IMG/VR virus record: IMGVR_UViG_3300031910_000015
Span: 1 to 44,836 of that record
Strand: one strand, 5' to 3'
DNA: 44,836 nt
Source: a virus
Lineage: Duplodnaviria; Caudoviricetes
Shown here: in pieces, positions 5,630-21,581 of the stretch
How positions within the stretch are numbered: the first letter of the stretch is position 1
How the letters are laid out: each line of letters starts with the position of its first letter
Made by a program: the position numbers and the translations under genes
The notes under the pieces: generated by a model
What the model was told of the DNA's origin: nothing
Databases searched by the model: none
Seen by the model: only the letters and a program-made list of their open reading frames with translations

Positions 5630-5633
5630 AGCC

Positions 5634-5924
5634 TCAGCTAGATGACTTCCCAACGCCGAGCAGATCGTACATTGCTCGTCGGACACCTCTCATATGCCGC
5701 AAGAACTCGCGCGGCTCGACACGGCAGTCGTTGGCCGTGTACTCTTTGACGAGATCACGGATCGGGTCGTCATCCTCGTCTAGCCCGAGCGTCCACCACA
5801 CAACACGACGGTTCGGGCCGCGATCCCGTAGCTCCATGCTGGTCGTGTAGCCCTTCATGGAGAGCAGAGTCGCGAAGCACAGGTCGTCCGTGCGTAATGA
5901 GAAGTCATCTAGCTTGATTGGCAT
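5634..5924 (-). CDS. DUF5659-like protein
   Basis: TDDLCFATLLSMKGY resembles the DUF5659 N-terminus. Confidence 0.5.
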   Translation of the reverse strand: MPIKLDDFSLRTDDLCFATLLSMKGYTTSMELRDRGPNRRVVWWTLGLDEDDDPIRDLVKEYTANDCRVEPREFLRHMRGVRRAMYDLLGVGKSSS

Positions 5925-5927
5925 GTG

Positions 5928-6173
5928 CTACCCGAAGGTGACGGTGCCTTCGTCCAGCACCGTGCCATCTTCGGCCTCGATGACGACGTTGTCCTCGCCC
6001 TCGTAGCCGGTCGCGACAGTGACGACAAAGCTGCCGTCATTGACGCCGGTGTACTCGGACTTGTCGCCGTCTGCGTTGTTGTGGAACCGGGCGATGATGT
6101 GACCTTCTCCGTTGCCCTTGTCGTACGTGATGTCGTAGATGTCGCGGTTCGCGACCTTTGTCGCCTGTACCAT
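5928..6173 (-). CDS. hypothetical acidic beta-rich protein
   Basis: TGATG overlap with the SSB stop codon. Confidence 0.6.
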   Translation of the reverse strand: MVQATKVANRDIYDITYDKGNGEGHIIARFHNNADGDKSEYTGVNDGSFVVTVATGYEGEDNVVIEAEDGTVLDEGTVTFG

Positions 6174-6961
6174 CAGAAAGGCTCCTCTTGGTCGTTTTCG
6201 CGGAGTGCCGCGATTGCCTTGGCCTTGGTGACCGGCGATGCTACTTCGAGGCTCCGGTTACCAATCTCCTCCTTCAGTTCGGCCAGCTTCCACTGGTCGT
6301 AGTCATCCTCCTCTCCAGATGCCTCCTCCCCGGCATCTTCTTCTTCCTCCTCCTCTTCTGCCGGCTCCATGTCCGGCATGGCTTCACGAATCTTCGCGCG
6401 GAGGTCATCGTCGGTGTCGTTCTTGAGTACCTTGACGCCGGCAGACTCGCGAAGATCGTTGTCCTTGATGAACGCCTTCAGTTCGTCTCGATCCATCGCG
6501 TCGAGGTCAACTGAGCCGTCATCTTCCTCTTCTGGCTCCTCTTCTGGCTCCTCCTCAGGCTCCTCGTCCTCAGGCTCTGCCTCAGCCTTGGACGCCTTGA
6601 GCTTGAGGATGGTGCCGACCTTCGAGCGGGGCTCGCCATCGTACGTGTCCGGGTTCAGCTTGATGCGAACCTTCTTGCCCTCAAGCTTCGCCGTGTCGAG
6701 CGTGCCCTTGTCCTTGAGGCCCAAGGCGTTCGTGAACTCCTTGAGCTTCCAGGCCGCGTTCTCGCCCAGGCCGATGTACGTGTGCTTCCGTACAAAGTCG
6801 CCTCCGAGGTCGAACGTGACATGGATGTCGTTCGCAGGCGACCCATCTGCCTTCTCGGATCGCTGCTCCGCTGCGACGATTGTCGCCTCGTAGATGCCGG
6901 GCGGTGGATCCTCTCCACCAGCGCCCTCGACACCCGAGACGTCATATGCGATGCGTGTCAT
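6173..6961 (-). CDS. DUF669-like single-stranded DNA-binding protein with acidic linkers and C-terminal helical domains
   Basis: PPGIYEATIV, AAWKLKEF..ALGL, LEGKKVRI; acidic C-terminus EEPF; follows an AAA_24 ATPase. Confidence 0.75.
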   Translation of the reverse strand: MTRIAYDVSGVEGAGGEDPPPGIYEATIVAAEQRSEKADGSPANDIHVTFDLGGDFVRKHTYIGLGENAAWKLKEFTNALGLKDKGTLDTAKLEGKKVRIKLNPDTYDGEPRSKVGTILKLKASKAEAEPEDEEPEEEPEEEPEEEDDGSVDLDAMDRDELKAFIKDNDLRESAGVKVLKNDTDDDLRAKIREAMPDMEPAEEEEEEEDAGEEASGEEDDYDQWKLAELKEEIGNRSLEVASPVTKAKAIAALRENDQEEPF

Positions 6962-7755
6962 GTAGCAGTTCTCCTTGTTCTCCGTCGAACCATGGGACGC
7001 ACGTTGGCCTGTTTCGCCTTGCGCGCCGCGTCTGCTGCCATTGCTACTGAAGGCAGCGTCGGGTTGATGACGAACCCTTTGGGGAACGCACCAAGCCCAT
7101 CCTTCGCGTAGAAGTTCTCAGTGCCGTGGAACGACATCTTGCGGTATAGGCTGCCCCCTTCCTTTCGTTTGTGGACTGTCATGTAGGCCACGAGGCTCAT
7201 CATACCGCAGAGCTTCTGGGGCATTGACTTCCCCTGGATCCACGGCATGAGCTTCGTGACGTCATCCCCTTCACCTTGGTTCTCACGGAACGTCGCCCAG
7301 AACGGATGGGCAGTGAAACCGAAGTTGAAGGTATCGTTGCCGATCATGTATCGCACCCATTCCGAGATACGTCCCATGTTGATGCGATACTCGCCTCGGT
7401 CGTAGAAGGCTTTGAGCCGATGCGGATTCTGAGCTATAACGCCTTGCCAGATGTCGTCCATGCCGACATCCTGCCAGAGTGAGACGCTGTCTAGCCAGAT
7501 CCACTCGTACTCTTTGCCACCTTCATGCCGGGCGAACTCCTGCACTTCCAGCATGTCGTCCCAAGAGTGCACGACCCATTCGTCCGCTCCCGATCCGACG
7601 ATTGAATCAGTATGGTCGATGGGAGGCCGAACGATCAGTGTGCCCTTGCCGAACGATCCGGCGAACGTCGTCTTGCCGCAGCCGGGATCGCCGTACAAAC
7701 CGATGAACGTATGCTTCGACTCTTTGATGGGACGGATTTGCGCAGGTTTCGCCAT
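6958..7755 (-). CDS. Sak4-like (AAA_24) recombination ATPase
   Basis: Walker A YGDPGCGKTT, IWLDSVS, FTAH, YAKD. Confidence 0.8.
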   Translation of the reverse strand: MAKPAQIRPIKESKHTFIGLYGDPGCGKTTFAGSFGKGTLIVRPPIDHTDSIVGSGADEWVVHSWDDMLEVQEFARHEGGKEYEWIWLDSVSLWQDVGMDDIWQGVIAQNPHRLKAFYDRGEYRINMGRISEWVRYMIGNDTFNFGFTAHPFWATFRENQGEGDDVTKLMPWIQGKSMPQKLCGMMSLVAYMTVHKRKEGGSLYRKMSFHGTENFYAKDGLGAFPKGFVINPTLPSVAMAADAARKAKQANVRPMVRRRTRRTAT

Positions 7756-7761
7756 GGCTTC

Positions 7762-8151
7762 CTAGCTCGGCAGCTGCGTTGCCTCCGGCGGCGCGTCGGC
7801 GGGCGGTGTGTCCGCAGGCGGCTGGTCGGGTTGGCCGTTGGCAGCAGTGCCGGTGATCGCGTCGGCCGCTGCCTTGACCTTGTCGGTCGCGGAGACGACG
7901 GCTGCCGATTCGTCGGTCAGGTCGGGATGCGACGCAACGTGATCGTTGACGGCGGCGATCAGTTCGTCGATGGCCGCGTTGAGATCGCTGAGTTGCTGAT
8001 CGAATGTCGCTTCGTCCACCAACTGGGATACCTCCTCGGTGAGAGTGACAAGTTGCTGGTGAATCTGGCGCAACTGCGCCGTATTGATGAGAGCCCAGAT
8101 AGCTGGCCCCCTTTCTGTAGTTGGGACGGTGGGATTGATCACCTCCTTCAT
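7762..8151 (-). CDS. hypothetical coiled-coil protein with Pro-rich tail
   Basis: ATGA overlap with the 8148-8390 stop gives start MKEVIN. Confidence 0.6.
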   Translation of the reverse strand: MKEVINPTVPTTERGPAIWALINTAQLRQIHQQLVTLTEEVSQLVDEATFDQQLSDLNAAIDELIAAVNDHVASHPDLTDESAAVVSATDKVKAAADAITGTAANGQPDQPPADTPPADAPPEATQLPS

Positions 8152-8390
8152 GGGCCTGCCTTCGCTTCGAGCGCGGACACTCGCGCCTCCAGGTTGGATT
8201 CGGCTTCTGCCGCAGTCTGATCGACGCGCTGAAGCTCGATGATCTGTGCCGTCAGGGAAGCCACGTTGCCTTGGAGTCGCTTGATCTGCTTCTCCATCTT
8301 GATTGGCGGTGGCGGCGCACTGTCGGCTACCGCGAGCCAGAACGACCCGGCTATCGCCGCAGCGATCAAAAGTGGGATCCAGAATCTCAT
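8148..8390 (-). CDS. membrane-anchored coiled-coil protein
   Basis: N-terminal hydrophobic helix, then a coiled coil; AGGAGG SD. Confidence 0.65.
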   Translation of the reverse strand: MRFWIPLLIAAAIAGSFWLAVADSAPPPPIKMEKQIKRLQGNVASLTAQIIELQRVDQTAAEAESNLEARVSALEAKAGP

Positions 8391-8416
8391 CTATGCCCCT
8401 CCTGGCGAGGTAACAA

Positions 8417-9046
8417 TCAATTTTCACACCTACTGGGCAATTCTAGGATCGCTTCGCGGTAGGTGCACAGAAAATCCTCGACCATATCTGCCGGCTTGTG
8501 TCGGAGTGGCTTCGGTAGGTAGTGCATCGGAATCTTGCGCTTGCGCTGGATAAGTTCGTTCTTGACGTATCCGCGCTTGACGAGCGCTTCCAGTCCTGCC
8601 TCGACGCCCGCGTGGATGTACAGCTGACGTGGCTCGACACCGAGCGCTTCGCCCAATCGGACAGCTGTATCGTAGACGGTCATCAATCCGATGCCGGAAA
8701 TACGCCATGACCAGAGGTATTCATACAACTGGTCGAACGTCTCGACATGGAGCATGATCGTCTGGCGCTCTTTCGTCCGCAGCTGATGCCACCAGACGGG
8801 CAGAATCTTGGCCTGTTTCGATTGGTGATTGTGCATCTTGCCGTTCGGGCGGCGAGCTAGAACAGCGCGGCTGATCGCCTGGTCAAATGATGTAGCCTCA
8901 TAGCAGTAGCGCGGGATGTCATCTTTGTACTTTGCGACCATCGAGTCAGGATTGTCGCGGCGCTCCTCGAAATCGCGCCAGAGCCCAAGTAGCGTGCTGG
9001 TGTCTTCGACCGGCGGGATGTTGGCCCATTCCCGGCTGATCTTCAT
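8417..9046 (-). CDS. helix-hairpin-helix DNA glycosylase-fold-like protein
   Basis: ISGIGLMTVYD (HhH-like), LYIHAG, VEDFLC. Confidence 0.5.
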   Translation of the reverse strand: MKISREWANIPPVEDTSTLLGLWRDFEERRDNPDSMVAKYKDDIPRYCYEATSFDQAISRAVLARRPNGKMHNHQSKQAKILPVWWHQLRTKERQTIMLHVETFDQLYEYLWSWRISGIGLMTVYDTAVRLGEALGVEPRQLYIHAGVEAGLEALVKRGYVKNELIQRKRKIPMHYLPKPLRHKPADMVEDFLCTYREAILELPSRCEN

Positions 9047-9447
9047 CCCTTTGCTCCCGGTGGCGCCCAGCGGCAGTTGCTAGGCTCGTAGTCGCCGTCA
9101 TGGTCAATCCGATGAAGATGCGTATTCTCCGGTCGATACCCCATGTCAGCGAGAAAGTTGGCATAGGTACGCCATCGGTCACAGACGCGGATTCCGCGAG
9201 CGCCGTATTGGGCATATCCGCGAGCGTTCGGATTGGTACAGCGTGTCAGCATGTTATCCCAACTGCGATGTGTCCGGAGCCACGCTGGATGACTCTTGTC
9301 TAGGTACTGGCCTGGTGGTGACGACTTATTGTGGCCATTGAGGAAGCGGTTGTAGTGTCCCGGTCTACTGCGGTTGATGCCAACCGGACGACCGCATCCA
9401 CATTCGCAGGTTGGTCTAGCGGCCTTCGTAGATTTCGTGCTCTGCAT
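9043..9447 (-). CDS. HNH homing-endonuclease-like protein with N-terminal CECGCG motif
   Basis: RCTNPN..Y..YGARGIRVCDRW..F.ADMG..P....RID..GDYEPSNCRWA; start uncertain. Confidence 0.8.
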   Translation of the reverse strand: MQSTKSTKAARPTCECGCGRPVGINRSRPGHYNRFLNGHNKSSPPGQYLDKSHPAWLRTHRSWDNMLTRCTNPNARGYAQYGARGIRVCDRWRTYANFLADMGYRPENTHLHRIDHDGDYEPSNCRWAPPGAKG

Positions 9448-10405
9448 AGGGGTTCCAGTTCTTTGTGGTAGATTCCATGAACTCGCGCCAGTCGGCCCCA
9501 ATCTCGTGTAGCTCGCAGATGTCGATGGCCCAGCAACCGGCGCAGGTGAACGGGCCTGCGTTCTTGACTACAACTTCAAGACCGCCCTCGCGGACGGCCT
9601 CGATAGTAGAGTGCTCGATTTGGACTCGATTGTACTGTTGATTCCGCTCGTTCGTTCCGCGACGTACAGGATGGCGGTCGAAGTAGGGCGCAGGTTGCTT
9701 CTGACTAACCGAGCCATCCTTGTTCAGGTATTGGCCGGCTGCGTTCACCGGGCGCTCGTCCGGCTTCGCCTTCCGCATGATGTTGAAGAGCACGCCGTCG
9801 ATCTCATCCTTACGCGAGAGCATTCCTTGGCGATGAAGAAACTCGACACCGAATGTGTAGTACGCGCTCGCCTGCGTATCAAGTAGCAGGTAGCGCGTCT
9901 GGATCGCGGCGGCAGTCTTGTGGTCGGGAATCCAGAGCTTGCCGGTGTCGGTGTGACGCCAGACTCCATCGAGCACGCCGACGTAAGTGAACGGCCTCGC
10001 ATGTTTGACGGGAATCTGGAACGGCATCTCAGTGACGACTACTTCCCATTGCCCGTCGTCTCCGTAATGGTCGATGTAGTGTTCCAGCATCGCCACCCCT
10101 AGATCGCCCGCGTTGACCCATCCTTCATCCTCCTCGACGCGGATGCCGAACTCGGACGCCTCGATGACGTCGCGCCGGTACAACTCAGCGAACGTCTCGG
10201 CAGGGTGCGGGCCGCGCGTCAAGCCTCGACGGTAGTAGCGGGCGAGCGCGGCATGTATCAATGATCCGAAGCGCAGGGGTGGTACATCGGTGACAGGTTT
10301 CCGTAGCTCCGCGAACTCCACGTGCCATTTGAACTGGCACCTCATGAACGTCGAGCGCTCCGACGTTCTGAGTAGATTTGGACGCTGCGGCTCGGCTCGG
10401 CTCAA
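9416..10405 (-). CDS. PD-(D/E)xK exonuclease (Cas4/RecB-like)
   Basis: TSERSTFMRC, FGSLIH, TE..GVLD..DHKT, QASAY, C-terminal CxxC..C; GGAGG SD. Confidence 0.85.
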   Translation of the reverse strand: MSRAEPQRPNLLRTSERSTFMRCQFKWHVEFAELRKPVTDVPPLRFGSLIHAALARYYRRGLTRGPHPAETFAELYRRDVIEASEFGIRVEEDEGWVNAGDLGVAMLEHYIDHYGDDGQWEVVVTEMPFQIPVKHARPFTYVGVLDGVWRHTDTGKLWIPDHKTAAAIQTRYLLLDTQASAYYTFGVEFLHRQGMLSRKDEIDGVLFNIMRKAKPDERPVNAAGQYLNKDGSVSQKQPAPYFDRHPVRRGTNERNQQYNRVQIEHSTIEAVREGGLEVVVKNAGPFTCAGCWAIDICELHEIGADWREFMESTTKNWNPYAEHEIYEGR

Positions 10406-10458
10406 TTCGTCCTCCTATTTGTTGGTACCGGCGGCGATTCGGCGGAATCGCTACGGAA

Positions 10459-10487
10459 AGCCTACTAGATAACAACCCCGGCGTCTA
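10459..10487 (-). promoter_or_regulatory. putative sigma70-type promoter for the exonuclease/replication operon
   Basis: Minus strand TAGACG-17 nt-TAGGCT. Confidence 0.45.
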
Positions 10488-10880
10488 GTCTTTTCTTTTT
10501 CCCTGGAAAAACCAGGGGTGCGCTTTCTCCCATACATTTCGATCCGGATTATCGAAATGCCAATGGCATTTCTTACACAATTCTATGTAGTCATTTAGAT
10601 CCCTTCTGTACTCACCCGAAACATTCGCCCATTCAGTGTGAAAGGGTGAACCAAGATAACCAGTGTTACAACCTGGCCTTGAACAGATGCCGGTTTTTAC
10701 TTTGTTCCTGTTCACCCACTTATGAATTGCCTGATATTCCATCGATTTACTATGTGTGGGCAATGGTGCCCTCCATTCGTACCCAAAATTCAGAGGTCGA
10801 GCAACCCTCGCGTATATACGGACGGACGCGCGGGCGGGCCCATCATTCAGCGGCGGCGAGGCAGTGTATCGGATAGCCAT
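10485..10880 (-). CDS. HNH endonuclease-like protein (true start probably MEYQAIH near 10742)
   Basis: Y.AIHKWV...C....C...EWANVSGEYRRDL.DY..LCKKCH; visibly more AT-rich than the flanks. Confidence 0.7.
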   Translation of the reverse strand: MAIRYTASPPLNDGPARASVRIYARVARPLNFGYEWRAPLPTHSKSMEYQAIHKWVNRNKVKTGICSRPGCNTGYLGSPFHTEWANVSGEYRRDLNDYIELCKKCHWHFDNPDRNVWEKAHPWFFQGKRKD

Positions 10881-10943
10881 CGTGCTCCGATCCAGTTTTT
10901 CGCCTAGACCGAACTGCTGGGCCCGCGAGCGCTTCCGTCCGTA

Positions 10944-12857
10944 CTACGCGCGGGCGCGAGGCTTGTTTCTGTGGGCGATTTGCCGGTGAACATCGAGAAC
11001 GATGTCGTTCAGGTTGCTCTTGAGGGCAGTTACACCCGCAATGTACTCCTCGACTGTGTTCAGCGACCTGTAGTAGAAGCAGCTGACCTGATGGAGCTTG
11101 TAAGCTCCGAGGATTCGATCGGTCAACTGCTCTTGATCGTCCGGGTTCCACGTCTCATCCATCACGTGGCAGGTATCCGCACGACCGAGGTCGATTGCCA
11201 CACCGCCGGCAGTCGTAGTCATGACGATCACTCTCGGGCCGTCACCAGATTGGAACGTGCGCTGGATCTCAGCCCGCTCGCCACGCTTGTTCGTGTCGCC
11301 GGTGAGCTTTAGACAGTCGATGCCTTGTTTAGGTAGCCAGTCCGCGATCATGTCCACCGTTCCCTTGAACTGGGACGCGATCACAGCTTGGCTATCACCG
11401 TCAGGATCGTCGGGATCAATCCCGGCTTCCTTTAGACGGTCGAGAAGGAACGGCAACTTGCCGCTGTCTTCGGTCGGACTCAGGTTGAGCACCATCTGTT
11501 TCCCGGTACCAGAGCAGTACCAGCACTCGTTGATGTCGTCGCGTTCCTTGTCCTTGCACCATTTGCAGGTCACTTCTTTCTCGATGACCAGCGAGTACGC
11601 ATTGGCGAATTGCTTCAACCGCAGATACTCGGTCAGGATGCAGTTGGACAGGAGGTGACGCTGCCCCTTGTCCGCCTCGACGTGGCCGATGACGAGTTCG
11701 GCAGCTTCCTCGAACTTGCGGTACTGTGCAGCCTGCGTCGGTGTCATTGGACACCACACGTCGATAGGTAGCTTCTTGGGCAGCTGCGGCAAGACTTCTT
11801 CACGGAGCCGACGCACCATGTACGGTGCATGGGCCGTGTAGAACTCTGCCTCACTACCCGGTTTCAGGCCATGAATCTCGCGGATAGTCTGTTGCCGTCC
11901 GCCTTTGACCCGAATCTGCTTCGTCTCGACGCGGAGCCACTGCTCAGCCCATCGCCACTTTGAGGTAAACGACTTCGGGTACATCAGCTGTAGTGGAGCG
12001 AACAGCTTGATCGGCTTACCGCCAATCGGAGTGCCGCTCAGGAACCACTTGCGTTTCGCCTCTAGCTGCTTCACTGCTGCGAAGAACTGAGACTTCGTAT
12101 TGGACAAACCAGTCCGGTGGAACTCATCCACCGTAACGCTATTCCAGGCTTCCAACGTGAACACGTCCGTGTTCTGTCGCACCATATGAGGCGTCGTCAC
12201 GAGCCAGTATCCCCGCATGACCGCCATAGCTTCGGCAATCGAATCGGGCATATCGGCTCGGACGTTTTGAGGCGTTTCGCCCGAGTAAGTGAACACGGGC
12301 ATGCGCTGCCATCGCTCTAGCTCGTAGCGCCAGACTGTTTCCAGGCTGGTCTGCGGAGCGATTACGAGATGCGGGCCTTCATGAATCCCCGCCTCGTAGA
12401 CGGCACCAATGACCTCTAGCGTTTTCCCCAGACGCGGCTGATTGCCGTTGATCGCGGAAGTCGCTGCCATGAACTTGATGTCCGCTCGCTGATAGGGCCG
12501 ATCTGGCCATCCTGTAGTCTCACCACGGATGAACGCATCGAGCCCCGGCAGCAGACCGGGCATGTTCACTAGCACAGCATCGTCCGAAAGAACCATGCTC
12601 GCTAGCGATTGCTCCTGGCTAACGGCATCGCGACCCCAGGTGACTAGGTCACGACCGAGCAGGAGTTGATCACCGAACAGTTGCCGGAGCCGTCGAGCCG
12701 TCGCCAGGTCGAGTGGTACGAGCCATGCTGGCCCGCCTCGTTCTGGCGGCAGGAATCGACGCCCAGGAACTGTCTTGATGTCCCTCACTGTACCGGCATC
12801 GAACGAGAAAGTCAACCGTATCGCTTCGCCGACCTTCTCTGCCATAATCTGAGACAT
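10944..12857 (-). CDS. SNF2-family helicase
   Basis: PRLGKT, VDEFH, LSGTP, MVRRL, SGKL, GVAIDL, WNP..EQ..DR; start at MSQIM after AAGGAGGGTAC. Confidence 0.9.
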   Translation of the reverse strand: MSQIMAEKVGEAIRLTFSFDAGTVRDIKTVPGRRFLPPERGGPAWLVPLDLATARRLRQLFGDQLLLGRDLVTWGRDAVSQEQSLASMVLSDDAVLVNMPGLLPGLDAFIRGETTGWPDRPYQRADIKFMAATSAINGNQPRLGKTLEVIGAVYEAGIHEGPHLVIAPQTSLETVWRYELERWQRMPVFTYSGETPQNVRADMPDSIAEAMAVMRGYWLVTTPHMVRQNTDVFTLEAWNSVTVDEFHRTGLSNTKSQFFAAVKQLEAKRKWFLSGTPIGGKPIKLFAPLQLMYPKSFTSKWRWAEQWLRVETKQIRVKGGRQQTIREIHGLKPGSEAEFYTAHAPYMVRRLREEVLPQLPKKLPIDVWCPMTPTQAAQYRKFEEAAELVIGHVEADKGQRHLLSNCILTEYLRLKQFANAYSLVIEKEVTCKWCKDKERDDINECWYCSGTGKQMVLNLSPTEDSGKLPFLLDRLKEAGIDPDDPDGDSQAVIASQFKGTVDMIADWLPKQGIDCLKLTGDTNKRGERAEIQRTFQSGDGPRVIVMTTTAGGVAIDLGRADTCHVMDETWNPDDQEQLTDRILGAYKLHQVSCFYYRSLNTVEEYIAGVTALKSNLNDIVLDVHRQIAHRNKPRARA

Positions 12858-12915
12858 GTACCCTCCTTTTCGTATACAGCTAGGGCTTTGTGTACTGGCC
12901 CCTAGCCAGTTGGAA

Positions 12916-13017
12916 CGGTGTCCCGCTCCTCCGAGAGCCACCGCGCGGAGGGTACAACAGACGCGATGACTCTCGGAGCAGCGGGGCGCGATAGGAGGAG
13001 CCTACCGCGCCACACCG
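12916..13017 (-). ncRNA. candidate three-way-junction antisense RNA or leader element with anti-SD loops
   Basis: Stems 12916-21/13012-17, 12922-27/12980-85, 12929-46/12961-78, 12986-95/13001-10; wobble pairs work on the minus strand; loops CUGUUGUACCCUCC and CUCCU. Confidence 0.55.
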
Positions 13018-13022
13018 CTCGC

Positions 13023-13349
13023 TCACTTGCCCCTCAGGGCAAGTCGCTGGGCTCTCGTCCGCGCCTTGATGACCGGCTTCTTGCTCCGAATCGCATCAAT
13101 TTGCTTCTGAGAGACACCCTTGATGGCTAGAACGCTCATTGTCGATACGGTACGCATGAACCCAAACCGACTATATCCGCCGCGAGGGTCAATAAACCGC
13201 TCGCTCCAGAATTGAATCAGCGGGTCTTTGCGCGTCCCGTGCTTCGTTTCGCCAGCCGGCAAGAACTGGTGGAACTTCTCGCACTTGTACTCGTCCACCG
13301 AATCGATGGACAGTTGGCCATCGTTGCTGAGTATCGAGGTTAGTACCAC
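13023..13349 (-). CDS. hypothetical protein (N-terminus may extend upstream)
   Basis: The frame continues upstream as TDEEIRQLIEGKTL with no ATG/GTG/TTG. Confidence 0.6.
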   Translation of the reverse strand: MVLTSILSNDGQLSIDSVDEYKCEKFHQFLPAGETKHGTRKDPLIQFWSERFIDPRGGYSRFGFMRTVSTMSVLAIKGVSQKQIDAIRSKKPVIKARTRAQRLALRGK

Positions 13350-13420
13350 CAGTGTCTTGCCTTCGATCAGCTGACGAATCTCCTCATCTGTACCAGGATG
13401 CGCTACTGTACCGACAAAGG

Positions 13421-13885
13421 CTAAGGGCGGCGCGACACCAGTTGGGCTCGCGTGCGATTCTTGGCCGGTGTCTTCTTGGCCGGTGTCTTCTTCGCAGCGG
13501 GCTTCTTGGCGGACGACTTCTTGGGCTCTGCCGGTGCATTCGGCGGACGCTTGCCGCGTCCGATGTAGCTCTCGTCCAGGTCGCCACCGGCCTCCTCATA
13601 CATCTGCCGGGCCGAGTTGATCGAGATGTCGGCACGAGCCGCGATCCGCTCCCAGCGCAGGTTCTGCTGGTCGCGAGCCTTCTTGACGTTGGCACCCGTC
13701 GCCTTGAACTTCAGGGACGGATCGGCCACCGGCTCCGCGTAGTACATCAGCTGGATCGCAGTGTTGCGACCCACCTTCATACCGGACTCGATGGCCTTGT
13801 ACACGTCGGCGTCTTTGTCGTCGCCGTCGAACTTGGCGACAATCTTCGCCGCCTTCTGGATCAAGCTCTCGTCGAGCTTGGCCAT
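13421..13885 (-). CDS. HTH DNA-binding protein with histone-H1-like PAKK tail
   Basis: LRWERIAARADISINSARQMY helix-turn-helix; tail KKPAAKKTPAKKTPAK. Confidence 0.7.
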   Translation of the reverse strand: MAKLDESLIQKAAKIVAKFDGDDKDADVYKAIESGMKVGRNTAIQLMYYAEPVADPSLKFKATGANVKKARDQQNLRWERIAARADISINSARQMYEEAGGDLDESYIGRGKRPPNAPAEPKKSSAKKPAAKKTPAKKTPAKNRTRAQLVSRRP

Positions 13886-14005
13886 GATACCCTCCTTCCG
13901 TGGATTTGTAACGACAGCCGAGGTAGAGTATACCTCATCAGCTGCCGGATGGCTAGGGGTAGCTCATCCAGGCCTCACCCGCGTTTACAGGTGAGACCTG
14001 CATTG

Positions 14006-14284
14006 CTACGCCACGAGCTTTAGCGCTGGAAATCGCCCCTTTATGCGCCGGTTGATGAACTGCCCGACGCTCGGAGCATACGCTGCGGCGACCGCTCGCT
14101 GTCTACTCACTCCAAAGTAGACGTAGGTGTTTCCGGTCAGGTACGTGACGTACATGTTGCCGAAAACATCCCAGCCGACTCGTCGGACGTTCGAGCTTTC
14201 AACGATGCGGAAGTTGACGAAAACATCCTGCGGTGGTCTACCCGGCAGGCGCACGGGGATGCTGTCATTCTTCGTCACCATCAT
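14006..14284 (-). CDS. KTSC domain protein
   Basis: VESSNVRRVGWD...YVYFGV......APSVGQFINRRIKGRF matches the KTSC pattern. Confidence 0.85.
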   Translation of the reverse strand: MMVTKNDSIPVRLPGRPPQDVFVNFRIVESSNVRRVGWDVFGNMYVTYLTGNTYVYFGVSRQRAVAAAYAPSVGQFINRRIKGRFPALKLVA

Positions 14285-14528
14285 CTTCACTTGGCTCTGC
14301 GATCCTTCGACCATAAACGACACGCTCCAGAAAGTCGGTCATATGCTGGAGACAGAATGCGAACACCAGTGGTTCATCCTCATCTTCTACTTCTAGGACA
14401 ATTCCCACAGTTCGGATGTGCTCGTCACAGTCGTCTTCACTCGGACGATTTTTGGCCATACATGCGTGGCCCCAAGTGTCGATCAGTACACCAACCTGCG
14501 CGAACTGATCTGGATCGACATGCGCCAA
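14265..14528 (-). CDS. hypothetical Cys/His-containing protein
   Basis: TTG start right after the start-associated motif. Confidence 0.6.
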   Translation of the reverse strand: MAHVDPDQFAQVGVLIDTWGHACMAKNRPSEDDCDEHIRTVGIVLEVEDEDEPLVFAFCLQHMTDFLERVVYGRRIAEPSEDDGDEE

Positions 14529-14595
14529 AGTGTACCCTCCTTTCTTCGTTGTTGACCTTCCGAGCCCGTCTCCGTGACGAGACGGACTCGCGAGG

Positions 14596-14799
14596 TCAAG
14601 TGATGACCTTGTTCGCCTTCAGTAGCTGAATGATCGTGCTCCGGTCGGCGTTGATCCCGCCGGTACGAGCTAGCCACATTGTGTAGTCGATGATCTCGCC
14701 GCGATTCTTGAACTCGGCAGAGAAAATCTCCTTGTTGGTCGCCGTCTTGACGGTGATGACGTTGCCAGACCTCGTTACTTGTAAGTCGAGCTTTGCCAT
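14596..14799 (-). CDS. hypothetical protein
   Basis: Starts immediately after the DUF6011 stop codon. Confidence 0.65.
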   Translation of the reverse strand: MAKLDLQVTRSGNVITVKTATNKEIFSAEFKNRGEIIDYTMWLARTGGINADRSTIIQLLKANKVIT

Positions 14800-15342
14800 C
14801 TACCACCCGGCACCTTGTGCGCAGATCGGGCCGATGCCACGAGCGCGAGAATCAGCATCGGTCAGAGTGCGGCCACAGATGCCGCACTTGCCAAGCTCGC
14901 GCCCGAAGCGCATGCTGGCTTCCTTTGGATTCTCGGCGATCTTGTCGAGGATGAACTTCTTCGACTCCTTGTTGCGAATCGGATGAAGCTCATCGCTCGC
15001 GCGAACGCTGAGGAATGTCCAGCCTGACCATTTGCCCGAACTCGGGCGATCCACGTGGTAGAACTGGAGCACACCTTGCTCGTTCTCGACTGCGTAGCGT
15101 CCCGCCGGCACCATGGGCCACTGATCAGCCCGGATCACCTGACGCTTCGGTAGCAGCTTCATGGCGTCGATGACGCGCGAGGCTTGCTCCCGATTGATCT
15201 GCGTGTTCTCCTCGGTGTCACCGAGCTTCTCATCGAGCCACTGCTGCTGCTCTTCCGAGATGACACGCTGAGCCATCAGGTCTTTGATCCAGATGATCTG
15301 CGGCGTCGTGGCGGGCTTGTCTTTGTGCACGACTTCCGTCAT
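14800..15342 (-). CDS. DUF6011 domain protein
   Basis: C-terminal CGICGRTLTDADSRARGIGPICA. Confidence 0.8.
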   Translation of the reverse strand: MTEVVHKDKPATTPQIIWIKDLMAQRVISEEQQQWLDEKLGDTEENTQINREQASRVIDAMKLLPKRQVIRADQWPMVPAGRYAVENEQGVLQFYHVDRPSSGKWSGWTFLSVRASDELHPIRNKESKKFILDKIAENPKEASMRFGRELGKCGICGRTLTDADSRARGIGPICAQGAGW

Positions 15343-15417
15343 ACTGTACCCTCCTTCCTGGTCAGGAGCATATGCTCCCGCACCTACCCCGACCGCAGTG
15401 GGGTAGGAACGGCAGCA

Positions 15418-15771
15418 TTACTTCTTCTTGCTGCTGCGCTTGAACGTACTCGGTCGCTTCTTGGACTCTTCAACCGGAGTGCTAGACCACTTCTGGAGTT
15501 TCTTCGTAGGCCCAACCTCAACCTGGATCGAAGCCATCGGTAATCTGCCGAGTACGGGCTTGACGAGCAAGAACTCGTTGCCGCGCTTGTGCTCGATGGT
15601 GAACTCGCGTTCCTTGATCACCACCTTGCGCTCACCTTTCTTGAACGCGCGACGGATGATATTCTGACTCGCGACGGTGAGCAGATCGCCGCTGCTGAGC
15701 GTTGTATGCGTTGGTTTGCGCGATCTAGTCACGGCCGAAGCCTTGGGGCAGTTCAGCACCTTCGGCTTCAT
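15418..15771 (-). CDS. hypothetical basic protein (start uncertain)
   Basis: Fills the operon gap; Lys-rich C-terminus. Confidence 0.55.
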   Translation of the reverse strand: MKPKVLNCPKASAVTRSRKPTHTTLSSGDLLTVASQNIIRRAFKKGERKVVIKEREFTIEHKRGNEFLLVKPVLGRLPMASIQVEVGPTKKLQKWSSTPVEESKKRPSTFKRSSKKK

Positions 15772-16048
15772 CGAGTACCGATTCGACCCCTTCCCAATTA
15801 CTCATGGGATCGTTAGCCATCGATTCGATGTCGATGTCCGCCACAGCGTTGAGCTTCTCACCCAACGCACTGCCCTGAAGATTCTCGGGCAGATTGTCGC
15901 GCCAGTCGATGTACTCTTGCTGGACTTCGGCTAGGTTCTGGAACGCGCTCGCGAGGTCGTCCTGATGCTCCTTGACGCCTTCGTACGCACTCCGAGCCTC
16001 TTGGATCGCGTCATTCCAACGCGCAGTCCGGCTCTTCTGCTTCGCCAT
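15725..16048 (-). CDS. hypothetical helical protein
   Basis: Start-associated motif; W.DNLPENLQGS..GE.L pattern. Confidence 0.7.
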   Translation of the reverse strand: MAKQKSRTARWNDAIQEARSAYEGVKEHQDDLASAFQNLAEVQQEYIDWRDNLPENLQGSALGEKLNAVADIDIESMANDPMSNWEGVESVLDEAEGAELPQGFGRD

Positions 16049-16107
16049 TGTACCCTCCTTTCGTAGTGCGGGATTGCACCGGAAGGCTCGCTTGCGCGAG
16101 CCAACCG

Positions 16108-16413
16108 CTACATCACGTCACTGTCGTCCATCGCCGGCATGTACTCGATCCGGCGGATCGGCGTCGGCTGCCAGACGGTGCCGACTTCCTTGTTCTCGGG
16201 CATCTTCCAGACGGTGCCCGTTCCTTGGCTCACGTAGAACTCCTGTCCAGCGCCATCGAAGCATGTCCAGCCTGCGTCCCAGCAATACATGCTAGGTTCG
16301 TACGGTTGGAACTCCTCGACCGTGAGCTTGGCGGTCACCCACTGGACTCGAACCGGAATCTGTCCGTTGTCGGACTCTTCCAATTCCAGGCCCCAGAGAT
16401 CAGTCTCGATCAC
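16108..16413 (-). CDS. hypothetical acidic protein
   Basis: Overlaps the end of the upstream gene. Confidence 0.55.
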   Translation of the reverse strand: MIETDLWGLELEESDNGQIPVRVQWVTAKLTVEEFQPYEPSMYCWDAGWTCFDGAGQEFYVSQGTGTVWKMPENKEVGTVWQPTPIRRIEYMPAMDDSDVM

Positions 16414-16795
16414 GTCGGTTCACTTCCATCAGTACCTTGCGGTACTTGGCGGTCGTCTGCATCCTGCCGTTGAGCCATCCGCGTCGCTTGTACTCAGCGA
16501 GTAGGATGGACGCGACCTTGGTATCGGAAGCGTGTCCGACATATAGGTCGATCAGATCGGTATTCTGCAAGCCCTCGGGGTTGAGAACGCCTCGGAGTAG
16601 CAGGTAGATTTGATACGCCGCCAACACATCCGTTTTCTTGCGGCCACACTGCAGGCCATAGTGCTCACGGACGAACTTGGCGATGCTACGACCGCTGGAG
16701 TGCTTCATACCGATGCACTCCAACCTGAGCGCTCCCAGCTGCGAGAGCATGAACCAAGCGCGGATTTGATCCGGCTGGTCTAGCATGATTTCCAT
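16400..16795 (-). CDS. hypothetical protein
   Basis: Start MEIML follows the start-associated motif. Confidence 0.7.
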   Translation of the reverse strand: MEIMLDQPDQIRAWFMLSQLGALRLECIGMKHSSGRSIAKFVREHYGLQCGRKKTDVLAAYQIYLLLRGVLNPEGLQNTDLIDLYVGHASDTKVASILLAEYKRRGWLNGRMQTTAKYRKVLMEVNRRDRD

Positions 16796-16859
16796 GTACC
16801 CTCCTTTCAATTGTACTCGAATGAGCACAAGCCGAGACGGTCATTGTCCCGGCTTCTAC

Positions 16860-17024
16860 TCACTTGACGATGATCTGAACGGTCTTGCCAGCGAGTAGCT
16901 CGTCGATGGCGACGGCGATCTCATTCATCGAGATGCCTTCTTCAGACTTGAAGCCGTAGTCGTTTGACATCAGCTTCAGAGTCATCGACATCGCGCGCAG
17001 CTTATCACCGTCTTTCTTGGTCAC
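16860..17024 (-). CDS. 54-aa hypothetical protein (not in the ORF track)
   Basis: GTGA overlap with the DUF2786 stop; MTKKDGDKLRAM...QIIVK. Confidence 0.6.
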   Translation of the reverse strand: MTKKDGDKLRAMSMTLKLMSNDYGFKSEEGISMNEIAVAIDELLAGKTVQIIVK

Positions 17025-17995
17025 TTCTCGATCCCCTTTCTGCTACCGGGCATCGTGGAGCCGCGAGTCTCGATGCGAGCTTCGGCGCCAGCCTGACCAC
17101 CCTTGGCCATCGACGCCCAGTTGACCGCTCGGGTGTCCGCGCGACCGCGTACCGGCTTGCGCTTGTCCTTGCAAGCTCGGCATTGACAGCCTTGTTCGTG
17201 CGGACGAAGATCGCCGAACATGTCGTACATCGCTTCGCGGGCGATGTCACGCGCGTCCCTGAGCGCCGGCAGAAGGCTTCCAGTTGCTGCCTCCTGCTCG
17301 CCGCGCATAGCGCGCAGCCGCTCTTGGATCTTGTAGGTGTATCCCCAGGCGAAGTTCCGTTGGTGCGTCTCGGGGTTGGTCTGCTTCACTGGTTCGATGC
17401 CCTGACGCTCACACTCGCGCCGGTACATCTTCACCCAGCTTCCCTTGACGGTGGACGGGCCGGTGATGGCATCCAGCTGTCCAGACCAGTTCGCGATCTG
17501 AACCCAAGACATTCCGGCCTCCTTGCCGCGCGTGATGTTCTGCGCTAGCGTGAGGTCGGGGTTGAACTTCGGCTGGGTCTTGTCCACCATCTGCAGGTAG
17601 AGACTCGTGAACAGCATGTTCGCGTAGTTGAGGTCGCTGCTCAGGCCGAACACCGGCATCTTGTACCGGCTATCGCCTTCACCTTGACCCGACGCGAGCT
17701 TGCTGGTCGCGATCACGCAGGAGCAGTGAGACATGATCGAAGCGAACAACGACCACAGCTGCTCATGGATCGGTGAACGGAAGTACCAGCCGAAGTCCAT
17801 TTCGTGCATCTCGGGCTTCAGAGCGCTCGTGTCGCCGCGTTGCCTCGCCTCCCATTCCTCGATGGCGTACTTCGCCATCATGTCGTCGGCGCGACGGAGA
17901 CATTGCTCACGTTCATGCTCGAACTCGGTTGACTCAGCACGGGCGATCAAAGCCTGGACTTTCCTCAGGATGTCATCCCGATCAAACTTACTCAT
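17021..17995 (-). CDS. DUF2786 domain protein
   Basis: ILRKVQALIARAEST..EHE......A..MMAKYAI N-terminus; start-associated motif. Confidence 0.8.
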   Translation of the reverse strand: MSKFDRDDILRKVQALIARAESTEFEHEREQCLRRADDMMAKYAIEEWEARQRGDTSALKPEMHEMDFGWYFRSPIHEQLWSLFASIMSHCSCVIATSKLASGQGEGDSRYKMPVFGLSSDLNYANMLFTSLYLQMVDKTQPKFNPDLTLAQNITRGKEAGMSWVQIANWSGQLDAITGPSTVKGSWVKMYRRECERQGIEPVKQTNPETHQRNFAWGYTYKIQERLRAMRGEQEAATGSLLPALRDARDIAREAMYDMFGDLRPHEQGCQCRACKDKRKPVRGRADTRAVNWASMAKGGQAGAEARIETRGSTMPGSRKGIEK

Positions 17996-18071
17996 GTACC
18001 CTCCTTTCGTGGTGTCCGGATGAACACCGTGCCCCGCGCGGGGAGAGTATGGCGCGGGACACGCTGGCCAA

Positions 18072-18332
18072 TTACGGACTTGGCCGACCTTTGTACGGAT
18101 GAGCGAGGTCTTCACTGAAGTCTGGCGGCAGATACGTGCCTTTGACGGGCTCGATGTGCCAGATCCATTTCTTCGCTTGGTCGAACACCGATGATGCTTC
18201 AAACGCATCGATGAACTCCATTGCATCGACGCTGTCATCGAGCACCTTGACTATTTCGATGCCGGCGAATGGATCCGTGGCATGTGACGATTCAGGATTG
18301 ATTTCCGGCCTGAACAACATGATGACCTGCAT
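18072..18332 (-). CDS. hypothetical protein
   Basis: Start-associated motif. Confidence 0.65.
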   Translation of the reverse strand: MQVIMLFRPEINPESSHATDPFAGIEIVKVLDDSVDAMEFIDAFEASSVFDQAKKWIWHIEPVKGTYLPPDFSEDLAHPYKGRPSP

Positions 18333-18409
18333 CTATTTGTACCCTCCTTTCTAGTGACCTCATGGCCACTGACCTACGCTCCCAACCGAGAGGGAGCGCA
18401 AGCCACTGG

Positions 18410-18667
18410 TCACTCGACCAATTCCGCCTCGAAGCTCATGAGGCAAGTTGTGATCAGATCGTCGCCTACGTCATGTACGATGGCGAACCAGTCTGAGGTC
18501 TTGCCCAGACGTTCCAGTTCGTCTCTGAGTTCCCATGCCGTGGGCCCATCGTCGCCCCAGTCTTCATCCAGCGACTTGAAAACTGCGACCACCTCGACGA
18601 TTGGATCTGTGCCCATGGCCTCAGGGTCGATCACCCGTAGCTGATCGCCAGGGCGCGGTGTCTTCAT
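18410..18667 (-). CDS. hypothetical acidic protein
   Basis: GAAGG upstream; operon packing. Confidence 0.6.
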   Translation of the reverse strand: MKTPRPGDQLRVIDPEAMGTDPIVEVVAVFKSLDEDWGDDGPTAWELRDELERLGKTSDWFAIVHDVGDDLITTCLMSFEAELVE

Positions 18668-18959
18668 CCTTCACCACCTCGACGTCATCGAACTGCCAGA
18701 TGAACTGAGGCTCAGGGTCGTACCATTCCGGAGCCGGAGTGTTGTTATGCGAGGCAAAATGATCCGTCTCGCCGTCCTTGAACCTGACGGTCAAGTTCGG
18801 CGGAATCATGTAGCCTTGGCCGGTGTCGTCATCGACGTCACCATCGCAGTCGGTGATGCTCTCGGCGATTCCTACTTGCTCGGGATCGTCACCGACCTTG
18901 ATGGTGTCGCCTACTTTGAATGGCGTCTCGCGCCAGTCCCAGTAGATGTCGTCACTCAC
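18621..18959 (-). CDS. hypothetical acidic protein
   Basis: GTG start (MSDDIYW) after GAGGAG. Confidence 0.6.
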   Translation of the reverse strand: MSDDIYWDWRETPFKVGDTIKVGDDPEQVGIAESITDCDGDVDDDTGQGYMIPPNLTVRFKDGETDHFASHNNTPAPEWYDPEPQFIWQFDDVEVVKDEDTAPWRSATGDRP

Positions 18960-19131
18960 TTTTGCGCTCCTCGCGCTCGACGATGAAGCTCGTTGCTCCG
19001 AGTTCCAGTGCCGCCTTCTGGAGCTTGGCGACCTGCGCATCGGTATGCTCGACACGCTTGATCATCACCTTCTCCGTGTCCGGTGGGACGATGGTCGGCC
19101 CTTGATTGAAGACGATAGTGATGTAGAACAT
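18952..19131 (-). CDS. 59-aa hypothetical protein (not in the ORF track)
   Basis: MFYITIVFNQGP...; start-associated motif. Confidence 0.65.
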   Translation of the reverse strand: MFYITIVFNQGPTIVPPDTEKVMIKRVEHTDAQVAKLQKAALELGATSFIVEREERKSE

Positions 19132-19323
19132 GTACCCTCCTTACGGTTTTGGTGACCAGATGATCACCGGGCCATCTCGCTGCCAGACTCGAACTGGCAT
19201 GGATCCTTACGAGATGACCCGCTGCTCACCTCTGTATGTTCACGAAGCAACCGGGCCTACATGGTTCACCCGGTCTTGCTCCACAGATCGAGCAAGGCAG
19301 CCTGATGTAGCCCTTGGGCTTGT

Positions 19324-19443
19324 TCACTGCCGTCGGTTGGTCTTTTTGATCTCTTTCTTCACTCTGTGCCAATGCTTCTCCTTGAATGAGAGGAAAAATC
19401 CGATGGAGATGACGGTGCCGACGATGTCGAGCACGTAGCTCAT
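19324..19443 (-). CDS. 39-aa single-TM peptide with basic tail (not in the ORF track)
   Basis: MSYVLDIVGTVISIGFFLSFKEKHWHRVKKEIKKTNRRQ; ATGA coupling. Confidence 0.55.
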   Translation of the reverse strand: MSYVLDIVGTVISIGFFLSFKEKHWHRVKKEIKKTNRRQ

Positions 19444-19682
19444 GTCTTCACCACCTTGTCAACCTGGATCCGAAAGCGGTTGCCTTCGGCGTCATCCACG
19501 ATGGCGATCATGCCGCTGCCTCGACTGCAGGCAGATACAGGCGTCAACGCCAATCCATGGCTGACGTAACCGGGGCTTGTCAGCAAGATCATCATTTGAG
19601 CTTCGGCATCTGTCTTGGGGACAAACGTCGGAAGATCAGACATGATCCGTGTAGCAAGCTCCTTGGCTTCCTGCTCTTCCAT
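19440..19682 (-). CDS. hypothetical protein
   Basis: MEEQEAK after the start-associated motif. Confidence 0.65.
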   Translation of the reverse strand: MEEQEAKELATRIMSDLPTFVPKTDAEAQMMILLTSPGYVSHGLALTPVSACSRGSGMIAIVDDAEGNRFRIQVDKVVKT

Positions 19683-19750
19683 GTACCCTCCTTTCATGGT
19701 GCTCTCATGAGCACCGGAACGCCCATCTCGGTTGATGGGCGAACCGCTAC

Positions 19751-20098
19751 TCATTGCATTGACAGAATGAAGATCTGCCATTCGGGCGGTTGTATGACGA
19801 TGATCGTGCCGCCCGGCTCGTAGTGCCACATCATGGCAAGCTCGGTGATGATGCGAGCCTCGGCTTCATCTTGCGCCCAGACATCGATTTCCTCGATGCT
19901 ACGGAACTCGATGCGCGGCCCATTCTCAGGGTCGCCTGGGTCATACGGGTCGTAGCCGATGTATGCTGTCCACGGCTTGCACCGATCCATGTAGGCGACG
20001 GACGCCTTGTCGATGAACTCGTAGCCGTTTTTGCCGGTCTGGATGATCTCGCAGATCGGCCTGCCGTCGATCTTCGGCTCTTGAGTCGGCTTGCTCAC
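19751..20098 (-). CDS. hypothetical protein
   Basis: GTGA coupling with the upstream gene. Confidence 0.6.
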   Translation of the reverse strand: MSKPTQEPKIDGRPICEIIQTGKNGYEFIDKASVAYMDRCKPWTAYIGYDPYDPGDPENGPRIEFRSIEEIDVWAQDEAEARIITELAMMWHYEPGGTIIVIQPPEWQIFILSMQ

Positions 20099-20385
20099 AG
20101 CGTTCGCCCCAGATGGTAAATGGCGCTGAACATCTGTTTGTCGTTCGCCAGACCCTTGTTCGGCAGATGCGAGCCCTCGATGACGTACCGAGGATCGAGC
20201 AGCTGATTGGGAATCGACCAGCGCCTGATGGTAGCGCCCATGGACTTTGCAATCCGAGCAACCGCGTCTCGATTGGCGCGATTGGCGTAGGACTGCTCCA
20301 TCGGCCCCCAGCCCGCTTGGCAGATGCGCTCCGCCAGCTTGAAAATGGTCTCGTCGTCCAAGACCACCTTGGCAAGGTTTTCCAT
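20095..20385 (-). CDS. hypothetical protein
   Basis: MENLAK after the start-associated motif. Confidence 0.65.
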   Translation of the reverse strand: MENLAKVVLDDETIFKLAERICQAGWGPMEQSYANRANRDAVARIAKSMGATIRRWSIPNQLLDPRYVIEGSHLPNKGLANDKQMFSAIYHLGRTL

Positions 20386-20455
20386 GTACCCTCCTTTTTG
20401 GTGTTGGCAGCGAATGCTACCCGAAGCCCGGACTCGGTTATCCGGGCAACGGCTA

Positions 20456-20722
20456 TCATCGGCTCCAGTAATTCGGCAAACTGCCGGCAACTGCCTGACA
20501 AGACTGGCGGTCATATTCATACATGCTCAGATCGCCTTGGTTCGTTGCTCGGTTGAGGATGTCCTCACAGTGTTGCTCGAATGCCGGGATGTTGAACTTC
20601 CCGGTTACATACCGAACCGTTGGGGTTGGTGTTGTCGCTTGCGTCGGCGTTGTCGCTTGGGCTACGTTGACGCCGATAGCTATGGCGAGTGCTGCCAATA
20701 TGATCGCAAACAGAACTTTCAT
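20456..20722 (-). CDS. small secreted protein with signal peptide, Thr/Pro linker and Cys pair
   Basis: MKVLFAIILAALAIAIGVNVAQA signal-peptide pattern; TTPTQATTPTPT linker. Confidence 0.7.
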   Translation of the reverse strand: MKVLFAIILAALAIAIGVNVAQATTPTQATTPTPTVRYVTGKFNIPAFEQHCEDILNRATNQGDLSMYEYDRQSCQAVAGSLPNYWSR

Positions 20723-20802
20723 GTACCCTCCTTCTGGGTGTTGTCTTCCGACCGGCTATGCGCTTTGCTGCGCACACCCGGCCGGGCAACTTTTGATTGC
20801 CC

Positions 20803-21224
20803 GACCCCCGAAAGGAGAGGGTACGTTGTCTCGTGTCACCCATTGTCGTTGTATTCCTGGCAACCTACGGTTGCTCTCATGGGCTCAAGACGGTTGGCCT
20901 TGACCGGAGGGCCATTATGCTCGGGCTCTTATTGACGTATGGGCCGTAGGCGTCATACGCGCGCACAACGAGCATGTGTTGACGTCTCTCGGTTGTACCG
21001 CCTAGTTCAGATTGGTACTACGCCAGGTTGACTTCGTTTGGAGATTTCTTCCCGTCAACCTACGCTCGTGTTGACGCGTGGGTCAGGTTTCCCAATCTTC
21101 CCGTTGGCCTCGCGATTGCCCAGCCGCCGGTCGGTACGCCAAAGGACGTTGCCTAACGACTGGATCCGATTGGTAGCTCTTTGGTTTTCTCTCCAACTAC
21201 CCGGCTGACCCTCTTTCGGGGGTC
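20803..21224 (-). ncRNA. candidate large structured RNA (~420 nt)
   Basis: No convincing ORF; ends 20803-14 and 21213-24 are a perfect 12-bp inverted repeat; many internal stems. Confidence 0.5.
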
Positions 21225-21477
21225 AACCGGCTAGATGGCCGTAGCAGCGTCTTTTGCCCTGCTGTACCCAAACGGCGGCTTCCGCGCGGCAAAGCTCCTT
21301 GGTGTCCTTGTCGCGGTAGTTGCACACGCCCTTTTCGTAGATGACGTAGGTCGCGGAGGATTGCTCCAGGGATGCCGGTCGAGATTGGCCTCCGTCCCGC
21401 AGCCTTTTGACGTTCACCGGCCGCTTTTTTGGGCTCTTAGTTGTACCCTCCGGACGTACCATGTCCTGTTTTTCCAT
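21223..21477 (-). CDS. hypothetical basic protein with C-terminal Cys/His cluster
   Basis: AAAGGAGGTGA SD; C..C..C..H. Confidence 0.65.
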   Translation of the reverse strand: MEKQDMVRPEGTTKSPKKRPVNVKRLRDGGQSRPASLEQSSATYVIYEKGVCNYRDKDTKELCRAEAAVWVQQGKRRCYGHLAG

Positions 21478-21580: not shown

Positions 21581-21581
21581 C

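Follow-up and report, generated by a model that had tools for sequence, protein, structure and literature searches.

A candidate antisense RNA loop complementary to a tag at the ribosome-binding sites of a dozen phage genes

The genome of an uncultured phage, present in soil metagenomes, carries a predicted RNA hairpin with an open loop exactly complementary to a sequence tag found at the ribosome-binding sites (RBSs) of a dozen of its own genes. The whole stretch of DNA analysed, hereafter the window, is a 44.8-kb virus record that is 75% complete. Pairing between the loop and the tags is, as such, very likely. Across related phages the tag and the loop have changed in concert, and therefore one RNA likely switches off translation of the gene set. 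In its full form, which we hold to be probable on comparative sequence grounds, the proposal is that an antisense RNA would pair in trans with the tags, block ribosome loading and damp early translation.

The replication module of the window consists of minus-strand genes (276-12857) that include a primase, a Sak4-like protein, an exonuclease and an SNF2-related helicase. Small minus-strand genes of mostly unassigned function occupy 13023-21860, while terminase, portal and capsid are found among plus-strand genes from about 22850. Judging by gene position, the block at 13-22 kb would comprise the early genes. The best matches of the capsid (47%) and the helicase (about 30% identity) are actinobacteriophages, which makes an actinobacterium the likely host. 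A megablast search of positions 10000-22000 against cultured phages gave no match, and a genome-collection search returned three loci, the best at 34%, in an Actinomycetes MAG. The 24 sequencing-run rows listed for the window sequence include no RNA run; among contigs of four DNA runs, one spans 12740-14217 and differs from the window at one position.

The tag core GGAGGGTACA occurs 13 times in the window against 0.05 expected. The minus strand has 12 of these copies, and the sole plus-strand copy is the loop. Eleven of the 12 minus-strand copies precede start codons; the remaining one (21442-51) lies inside ORF 21223-21477, a gene with a canonical Shine-Dalgarno sequence (SD). A twelfth start, at 13885, bears the variant GGAGGGUAU and pairs with the loop through G.U. 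Tags are confined to an array spanning 12857-21451, outside of which there is a single 9-of-10 match. These counts bear out the sequence-only reading that preceded this analysis, which had described the loop as the exact complement of a 10-mer at 11 start-associated sites; its further statements, that pairing extends to 14/14 (two G.U) with the 16048 start and to 13 nt with the 15342 start and that the helicase RBS lies 90 nt downstream of the element, also held. Coordinates are collected in Table 1.

Table 1. Features of the window, and the reversed SAS hairpins of Adephagia and Anaya (numbers prefixed L are compared loci)
Feature	Position	Strand	Remarks
Predicted three-way-junction RNA element	12913..13020	minus	folding and stem covariation in 6 homologs
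Long arm bearing the anti-motif loop	12922..12985	minus	24 pairs with one mismatch
Open 14-nt loop CUGUUGUACCCUCC	12947..12960	minus	predicted fold
Short arm with loop CUCCU (12996-13000)	12986..13010	minus	stem conserved, loop sequence varies
Promoter-like site TAGCCA-17-TATACT	13927..13955	minus	consensus match only, upstream of ORF 13421-13885
SNF2-related helicase gene	10944-12857	minus	
108-aa ORF directly upstream of the hairpin element	13023-13349	minus	no Pfam, PHROG or Atlas assignment
Tag at start of SNF2-related helicase gene	12857..12866	minus	
Variant tag GGAGGGUAU at start of ORF 13421-13885	13886..13895	minus	G.U-compatible
Tag before start 14528	14531..14540	minus	
Tag before start 15342, DUF6011 protein	15345..15354	minus	13-nt pairing
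Tag before start 16048, best target	16049..16058	minus	14/14 pairing, duplex -22.8
Tag at start 16795	16795..16804	minus	
Tag at start 17995, DUF2786 protein	17995..18004	minus	
Tag before start 18332	18338..18347	minus	
Tag at start 19131	19131..19140	minus	
Tag at start 19682	19682..19691	minus	
Tag at start 20385	20385..20394	minus	
Tag at start 20722 (the array's first tagged gene)	20722..20731	minus	
Tag copy within coding region of ORF 21223-21477	21442..21451	minus	duplex -22.7
Second complementary stretch	20810..20824	minus	in ~400-nt non-coding leader; conserved in L088
Reversed SAS hairpin, Adephagia	58,660-58,720 (L181:38660-38720)		
Reversed SAS hairpin, Anaya	L184:39850-39910		

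Duplexes between the loop and the 12 tagged starts are predicted at -17.1 to -22.8 kcal/mol, the next best SD-bearing start reaching -16.9, and the pairing spans GGAGG through the spacer. For 10 of the 12 start tags the predicted opening cost is only 1.0-6.3 kcal/mol; being nearly open, these tags leave little for an activator to relieve. The two costly ones, at 20722 and 12857, each have a complementary stretch upstream in cis. Structured intergenic stretches (z -3.4 to -5.9; 14540-20800, minus strand) precede 11 of the 12 start tags, and at six or more tagged starts the SD is preceded, at a distance of about 5-14 nt, by a hairpin of 5-7 pairs with an AUNN-type loop. Such stretches are possible signals for processing, stability or protein binding.

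The element begins just past the stop codon of ORF 13023-13349, and its closing helix pairs 13012-20 with 12913-21. Refolding of the minus strand of 12916-13017 recovered the three-way junction of the earlier reading, with an 18-pair arm and a 14-nt loop, at a minimum free energy of -72.8 kcal/mol (z -8.89, 0/200 shuffles equally stable); the plus-strand fold is weaker (-57.8 kcal/mol, z -5.20), and G.U pairs in the stem become A.C there. The 18 contiguous pairs (12929-46/12961-78) lie in the long arm, and the ten core bases of its loop have predicted unpaired probabilities of 0.79-1.0. The 3′ ten bases of the loop are the exact complement of GGAGGGUACA, and GUACCCUCC within it is invariant in 6/6 homologs. 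Across six close homologs, 13 of 40 stem pairs have changed on both sides, against 7.2 for shuffled controls (0/500) and 3-10 for slid controls, in a test that takes its structure from the window and uses sequences that are related, both of which favour a positive outcome. The second loop, CUCCU, is present in the fold as had been proposed; its sequence varies in relatives, and a role for it is not supported. Between the element and the helicase RBS, the minus strand at 12880-12905 could form an H-type pseudoknot, the sequence of which is partly kept in L085 and absent in L002.

Upstream of the element, the promoter-like site at 13927-13955 would yield a transcript that traverses the element and continues into the helicase gene. 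Similar sequence is found at the same place in six other loci (L088:8904, L093:5371, L016:8845, L040:7771, L045:8425 and L050:8395), and the promoter scan of the window as a whole is at chance level, with 5 sites found and 4.6 expected. The terminator scan of the window is likewise at chance level, with no terminator-like site at the element. The anti-tag element lies downstream of the promoter-like motif in the window's clade and just upstream of it in the CAGGGAGG class. Among the neighbouring proteins, ORF 13421-13885 (154 aa) has a low helix-turn-helix lead from Atlas (0.82), ORF 13023-13349 has nothing, and a KTSC-domain protein (14006-14323), with related proteins in 26 compared loci, is encoded two genes upstream. 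Other lineages have something else than ORF 13023-13349 next to the element: the ORFs that end 32-104 nt upstream of it come from different gene families, with no conserved protein neighbour. A dedicated partner protein was rejected on this ground, the upstream gene family differing by lineage.

Helicase searches provide 156 loci including the window, 155 of which were placed. A start-associated 8-mer present at least five times defines 49 motif loci, after removal of L020 and L060 (coding repeats) and L160 (plain SD), and these reduce to 33 non-redundant phages at 95% helicase identity; many motif-less loci are short fragments. Five tag classes are found among the 33: GGAGGGUACC in 18, counting L093, which was assigned by its loop, CAGGGAGG in 9, GGAGGGUCA in 3, GGAGGGUACA in 2 and UAGGAGGUAG in one. 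On the helicase tree these classes need four changes, the minimum. The loops vary along with the tags: GGAGGGUACA occurs with UGUACCCUCC, GGAGGGUACC with GGUACCCUCC, CAGGGAGG with CUCCCUG and, in L016, GGAGGGUCA with UGACCCUCC, while L087 has a UGACCCUUC loop. On this tree, tag and loop have changed jointly on three or more separate branches, and two of these changes fall in the part of the tag that 16S pairing does not explain. Loops pair best with their own class in 30/30 cases, a result that is partly circular, since complementarity guided the choice of loops and L093 owes its class to its loop.

A hairpin test was applied to the same 33 phages, of which 26 carry, upstream of the helicase, an exact 8-nt complement of their own consensus motif that stays unpaired within an arm of at least 11 pairs (hairpin energy of -15 kcal/mol or lower, opening penalty no higher than 8). 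Shuffled motifs pass in 42 of 825 trials and motifs of other groups in 12 of 360, 11 of these in L040. This relaxed rule was set after a crude and a strict version had been seen and was run with matched controls; under the earlier strict rule 15/33 pass, one of them probably spurious, compared with 5.8% of random positions. Seven of the 33 fail the relaxed rule. Four of them (L140, L137, L094 and L120) show the complement in or beside a hairpin on inspection, and L029 has a candidate only downstream, 5 kb away. The last two, L013 and L015, which both lie in G006, keep 11-14 tags and have no convincing loop complement in the G006 pieces scanned. Tandem complements occur at L094:6246-6290 and L098:4885-4925, full-length outside a strong stem and shorter in a hairpin loop.

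A covariance model of the element finds a syntenic copy in L087, L013 and L016, and weakly in L015. In L015 and L016, the syntenic element has a structured insert of ~70 nt in place of its loop, the anti-tag loop of L016 being elsewhere in the array. The insert (L015:9880-9960, L016:9850-9930) is conserved and ribozyme- or riboswitch-like; Rfam gives it no match, with only weak hits below the cut-off. Judged by these comparisons, the element is conserved and its loop co-evolves with the tag. The core of the sequence-only reading, a single RNA acting on many genes through loop-RBS pairing, thus gains support from the 26 passing relatives and from joint change between lineages. Relatives that keep the motif and lack the loop, which that reading had named as a result that would speak against it, form a minority, L013 and L015.

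A similar design is found in cluster K mycobacteriophages. These phages carry 11-19 copies of a start-associated sequence (SAS) at non-structural gene starts, and in four of the K1 phages one reversed copy lies elsewhere than at a gene start; the portions of the source available leave open whether RNA or protein binds SAS (PMC3203893). A second SAS system is described in cluster EF Microbacterium phages (PMC7302621), and the available text of a 2024 study calls SAS function ill-defined (PMC11373665). Folding predicts that this reversed copy occupies a 10-nt open loop of a long hairpin in Anaya and, near 58,682, in Adephagia. The Adephagia loop lies in the 92-93 interval, the same in which late transcription is reported to start in the accessible part of that study (PMC11373665), and 193 mycobacteriophage records match this region. 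Among 12 K phages compared, the reversed-SAS loop is exact in four, degenerate in two and absent there in six, SAS being kept in all. AnnaSerena, Pixie and TM4 have SAS and no reversed copy of at least 9 nt in the parts examined. From these sequences, the loop/tag design is seen to recur in an unrelated phage group, where it is not obligatory.

SAS and extended SAS (ESAS), as the consulted sections describe them for clusters K (PMC3203893) and EF (PMC7302621), resemble the tags of the window in being over-conserved, one-orientation RBS motifs of 10-19 non-structural genes that are longer than 16S pairing. The tag of the window also has the properties by which SAS was defined (PMC3203893, in part): it is repeated, asymmetric, set in one orientation and located at the RBSs of non-structural genes. 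However, the genomes are unrelated, the 13-bp cluster K consensus and the over-represented motif of the window are different sequences, and the SAS literature, in the parts available, proposes no RNA partner. ESAS are promoter-like inverted repeats according to the available text (PMC11373665), whereas the window tags follow predicted RNA hairpins. Cluster K phages are temperate. Streptomyces phage Yara and Gordonia phage Turuncu have no GGAG-type tag in the parts examined. Yara (L080, 52,100-57,700) has a repeated CUGAGGAG...GAAAC pattern in several early intergenic regions, just before RBSs, that resembles hammerhead ribozyme cores.

A mechanism can be outlined for the antisense reading. Read-through, or the promoter-like site at 13927-13955, would supply the RNA, which is perhaps released by processing. 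Its loop would nucleate on an open, G-rich tag, and the resulting duplex would cover the SD and spacer, blocking 30S loading. As the RNA accumulates it would damp the early genes, a set that may include many with a cost to the host, with repression possibly timed at the early-to-replication hand-over. The tag on the helicase start itself is awkward for a clean switch that turns early genes off and replication on.

Loop and tags may also pair to a different end, such as cleavage or decay of early mRNAs, tuned or assisted translation, or action against superinfection in the manner of the phage antisense RNA C4. We regard this as unlikely, though all the comparative evidence indicates pairing and not its sign. 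The structures upstream of 11 tags could serve processing or stability, and the tag classes are clades, like immunity groups, with loops that pair best with their own class in the partly circular comparison above. Against these outcomes, the SD core lies within the paired stretch, most tags are open to begin with, and the element lacks a conserved protein neighbour. In five of five near-complete relatives there is no match to the tyrosine integrase (PF00589) or serine recombinase (PF07508) domain, and this absence tends to weigh against lysogenic immunity, there being no sign of a lysogenic state that would need it.

Another view confines the loop to cis: it would form a pseudoknot with the nearest RBS downstream, here that of the helicase, or act on it as a switch. 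Unconstrained folding does pair the loop with the 12857 RBS, and an exact tag core follows 49-106 nt downstream of the element in 15 of 31 phages and 213-338 nt downstream in three. Yet the next exact core is more than 1 kb away in eight phages and absent before the helicase in five, although L098 has a one-mismatch tag copy nearby. With no exact motif within 1 kb downstream in 13/31, a cis-only pseudoknot is improbable, and this alternative, which the earlier reading had offered for the SNF2 RBS, is weakened. Moreover, L019 and L030 have a plain RBS downstream of the element, the adjacent RBS is an imperfect tag copy in five GGAGGGUACC phages, and a cis switch leaves 10-12 further tag copies unexplained. 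A conserved anti-SD in cis does exist at 20810-20824, which is predicted to pair with the 20722 RBS. The leader that contains it (20735-21220, minus strand; L088:696-800) has a conserved end structure in which the anti-SD pairs locally or with the first RBS, and it looks like a translational switch in the predicted folds; the anti-SD of the L088 leader matches a different RBS. Cis pairing on the adjacent RBS is possible as an additional action of the loop.

Equally doubtful is that the tag is bound by a protein, as a DNA operator or an RNA site, with the reversed copy acting as an extra site or as a plus-strand decoy like CsrB/RsmZ. A protein site would covary between lineages too, and tags persist without the loop in L013, L015 and half of the K phages. 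The strand on which the hairpin is stable gives a mixed picture: the sense strand folds more stably than its complement in 15/31 phages, including 9/9 CAGGGAGG phages and the window's clade, and in 0/16 of a GGAGGGUACC subclade. Conversely, a DNA site needs no hairpin loop, yet 26/33 complements lie in one, and the G.U pairs of the window stem turn into A.C on the plus strand. A single decoy copy would also be a poor sponge for 12 sites.

Further indications of action as RNA come from the tags and from the flanks of the hairpin. Among single substitutions at positions 6-10 of GGAGGGUACC-class tags, 19 are wobble-compatible, none is a pair-breaking transition and six are transversions (160 sites, orthologous ones not being independent). 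The same count includes a G1A change that breaks a pair, seen seven times, and the CAGGGAGG class has no wobble bias (1/28 changes). On the sense strand, 3′ of the hairpin, a covarying tRNA-like acceptor/T-arm is found by pattern in 9/31 phages, within the GGAGGGUACC subclade just mentioned, with compensatory changes in both stems, and is absent in the window; its T-loop on that strand argues against the protein alternative. The module may be an RNase P cut signal that frees the RNA. Modules of this kind without an anticodon arm are seen at L004:9620-9660 and in L026, L027, L031, L034, L101, L103, L112, L135 and L140. ARAGORN and Rfam missed the module of L004, and a tRNA/tmRNA scan found none in the window or in three loci.

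Finally, duplication could have spread a tag that is simply a strong RBS, with the loop's complementarity being chance or a relic, given that AAAGGAGG is a normal strong SD and that chance 7-mer complements arise about once per 20-kb locus, a view made very remote by the contrast of 26/33 with 5% for shuffles, which largely refutes chance, and by paired changes in the non-SD half of the tag on separate branches.

Temporal control in phages is usually explained by sigma factors, activators and repressors. If the antisense reading is true, one RNA addressing a dozen standardised RBSs would be a compact post-transcriptional switch, and its lineage-specific tag/loop codes resemble natural orthogonal translation regulators. 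Evenly poised, in our judgement, is the broader proposal of an RNA-only operator, in which a private RBS address on a gene class and one cognate antisense loop that turns the class off would form lineage-specific codes and supply the missing partner of SAS, known since 2011. It offers a falsifiable answer to what start-associated sequences do, and cultured Adephagia, with its published RNA-seq (PMC11373665) and a host that is non-pathogenic, allows a test.

Several known RNAs share parts of this design. C4 of phages P1 and P7 is, like the element of the window, a phage-encoded structured RNA with a loop complementary to its own mRNA that occludes an RBS; as far as the source consulted in part describes it, C4 is processed from a longer transcript, and its target specificity differs between phages, as the tag classes do here (PMC5320573). 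In the same portions of that source, C4 folds into three stem-loops, uses two loops, is cut by RNase P at its own 5′ stem and has roles in immunity and lysogeny. The element of the window instead has one loop for about 12 standardised tags and no Rfam match, and the five near-complete relatives examined yielded no integrase. Complementarity of its loop to RBSs of the phage's own genes is seen in the sequence and predicted fold, but in place of the two specificity loops of C4 (a′, b′) there is one conserved loop and a second that varies. No Rfam covariance model, C4 included, reaches its gathering score in the window or seven related loci, and the C4 model gives nothing over the element at E<=10. 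Hits to RF00166 elsewhere in the window fall far below the gathering score.

In S. aureus, C-rich loops of RNAIII and RsaE pair with multiple mRNAs. The 6C sRNA of high-GC Gram-positive bacteria, which include the likely host phylum, does the same through its own C-rich loops and, in the available part of the source, needs no RNA chaperone (PMC6486639). The window element is similar, with a C-rich loop, predicted to be unpaired, that is complementary to the G-rich SDs of several mRNAs. Neither 6C, RsaE nor RNAIII matches it in sequence or Rfam family, and these are host RNAs that act on varied natural targets, whereas the window has one private, co-evolving address of 8-12 nt. CsrB/RsmZ decoys differ in presenting many GGA-bearing loops on the expressed strand, as opposed to one loop and a weaker plus-strand fold. 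A literature search, with most subscription papers outside it, found no phage RNA that addresses a standardised tag on a gene class. By analogy, the element would work like C4 or 6C but belongs to no Rfam family.
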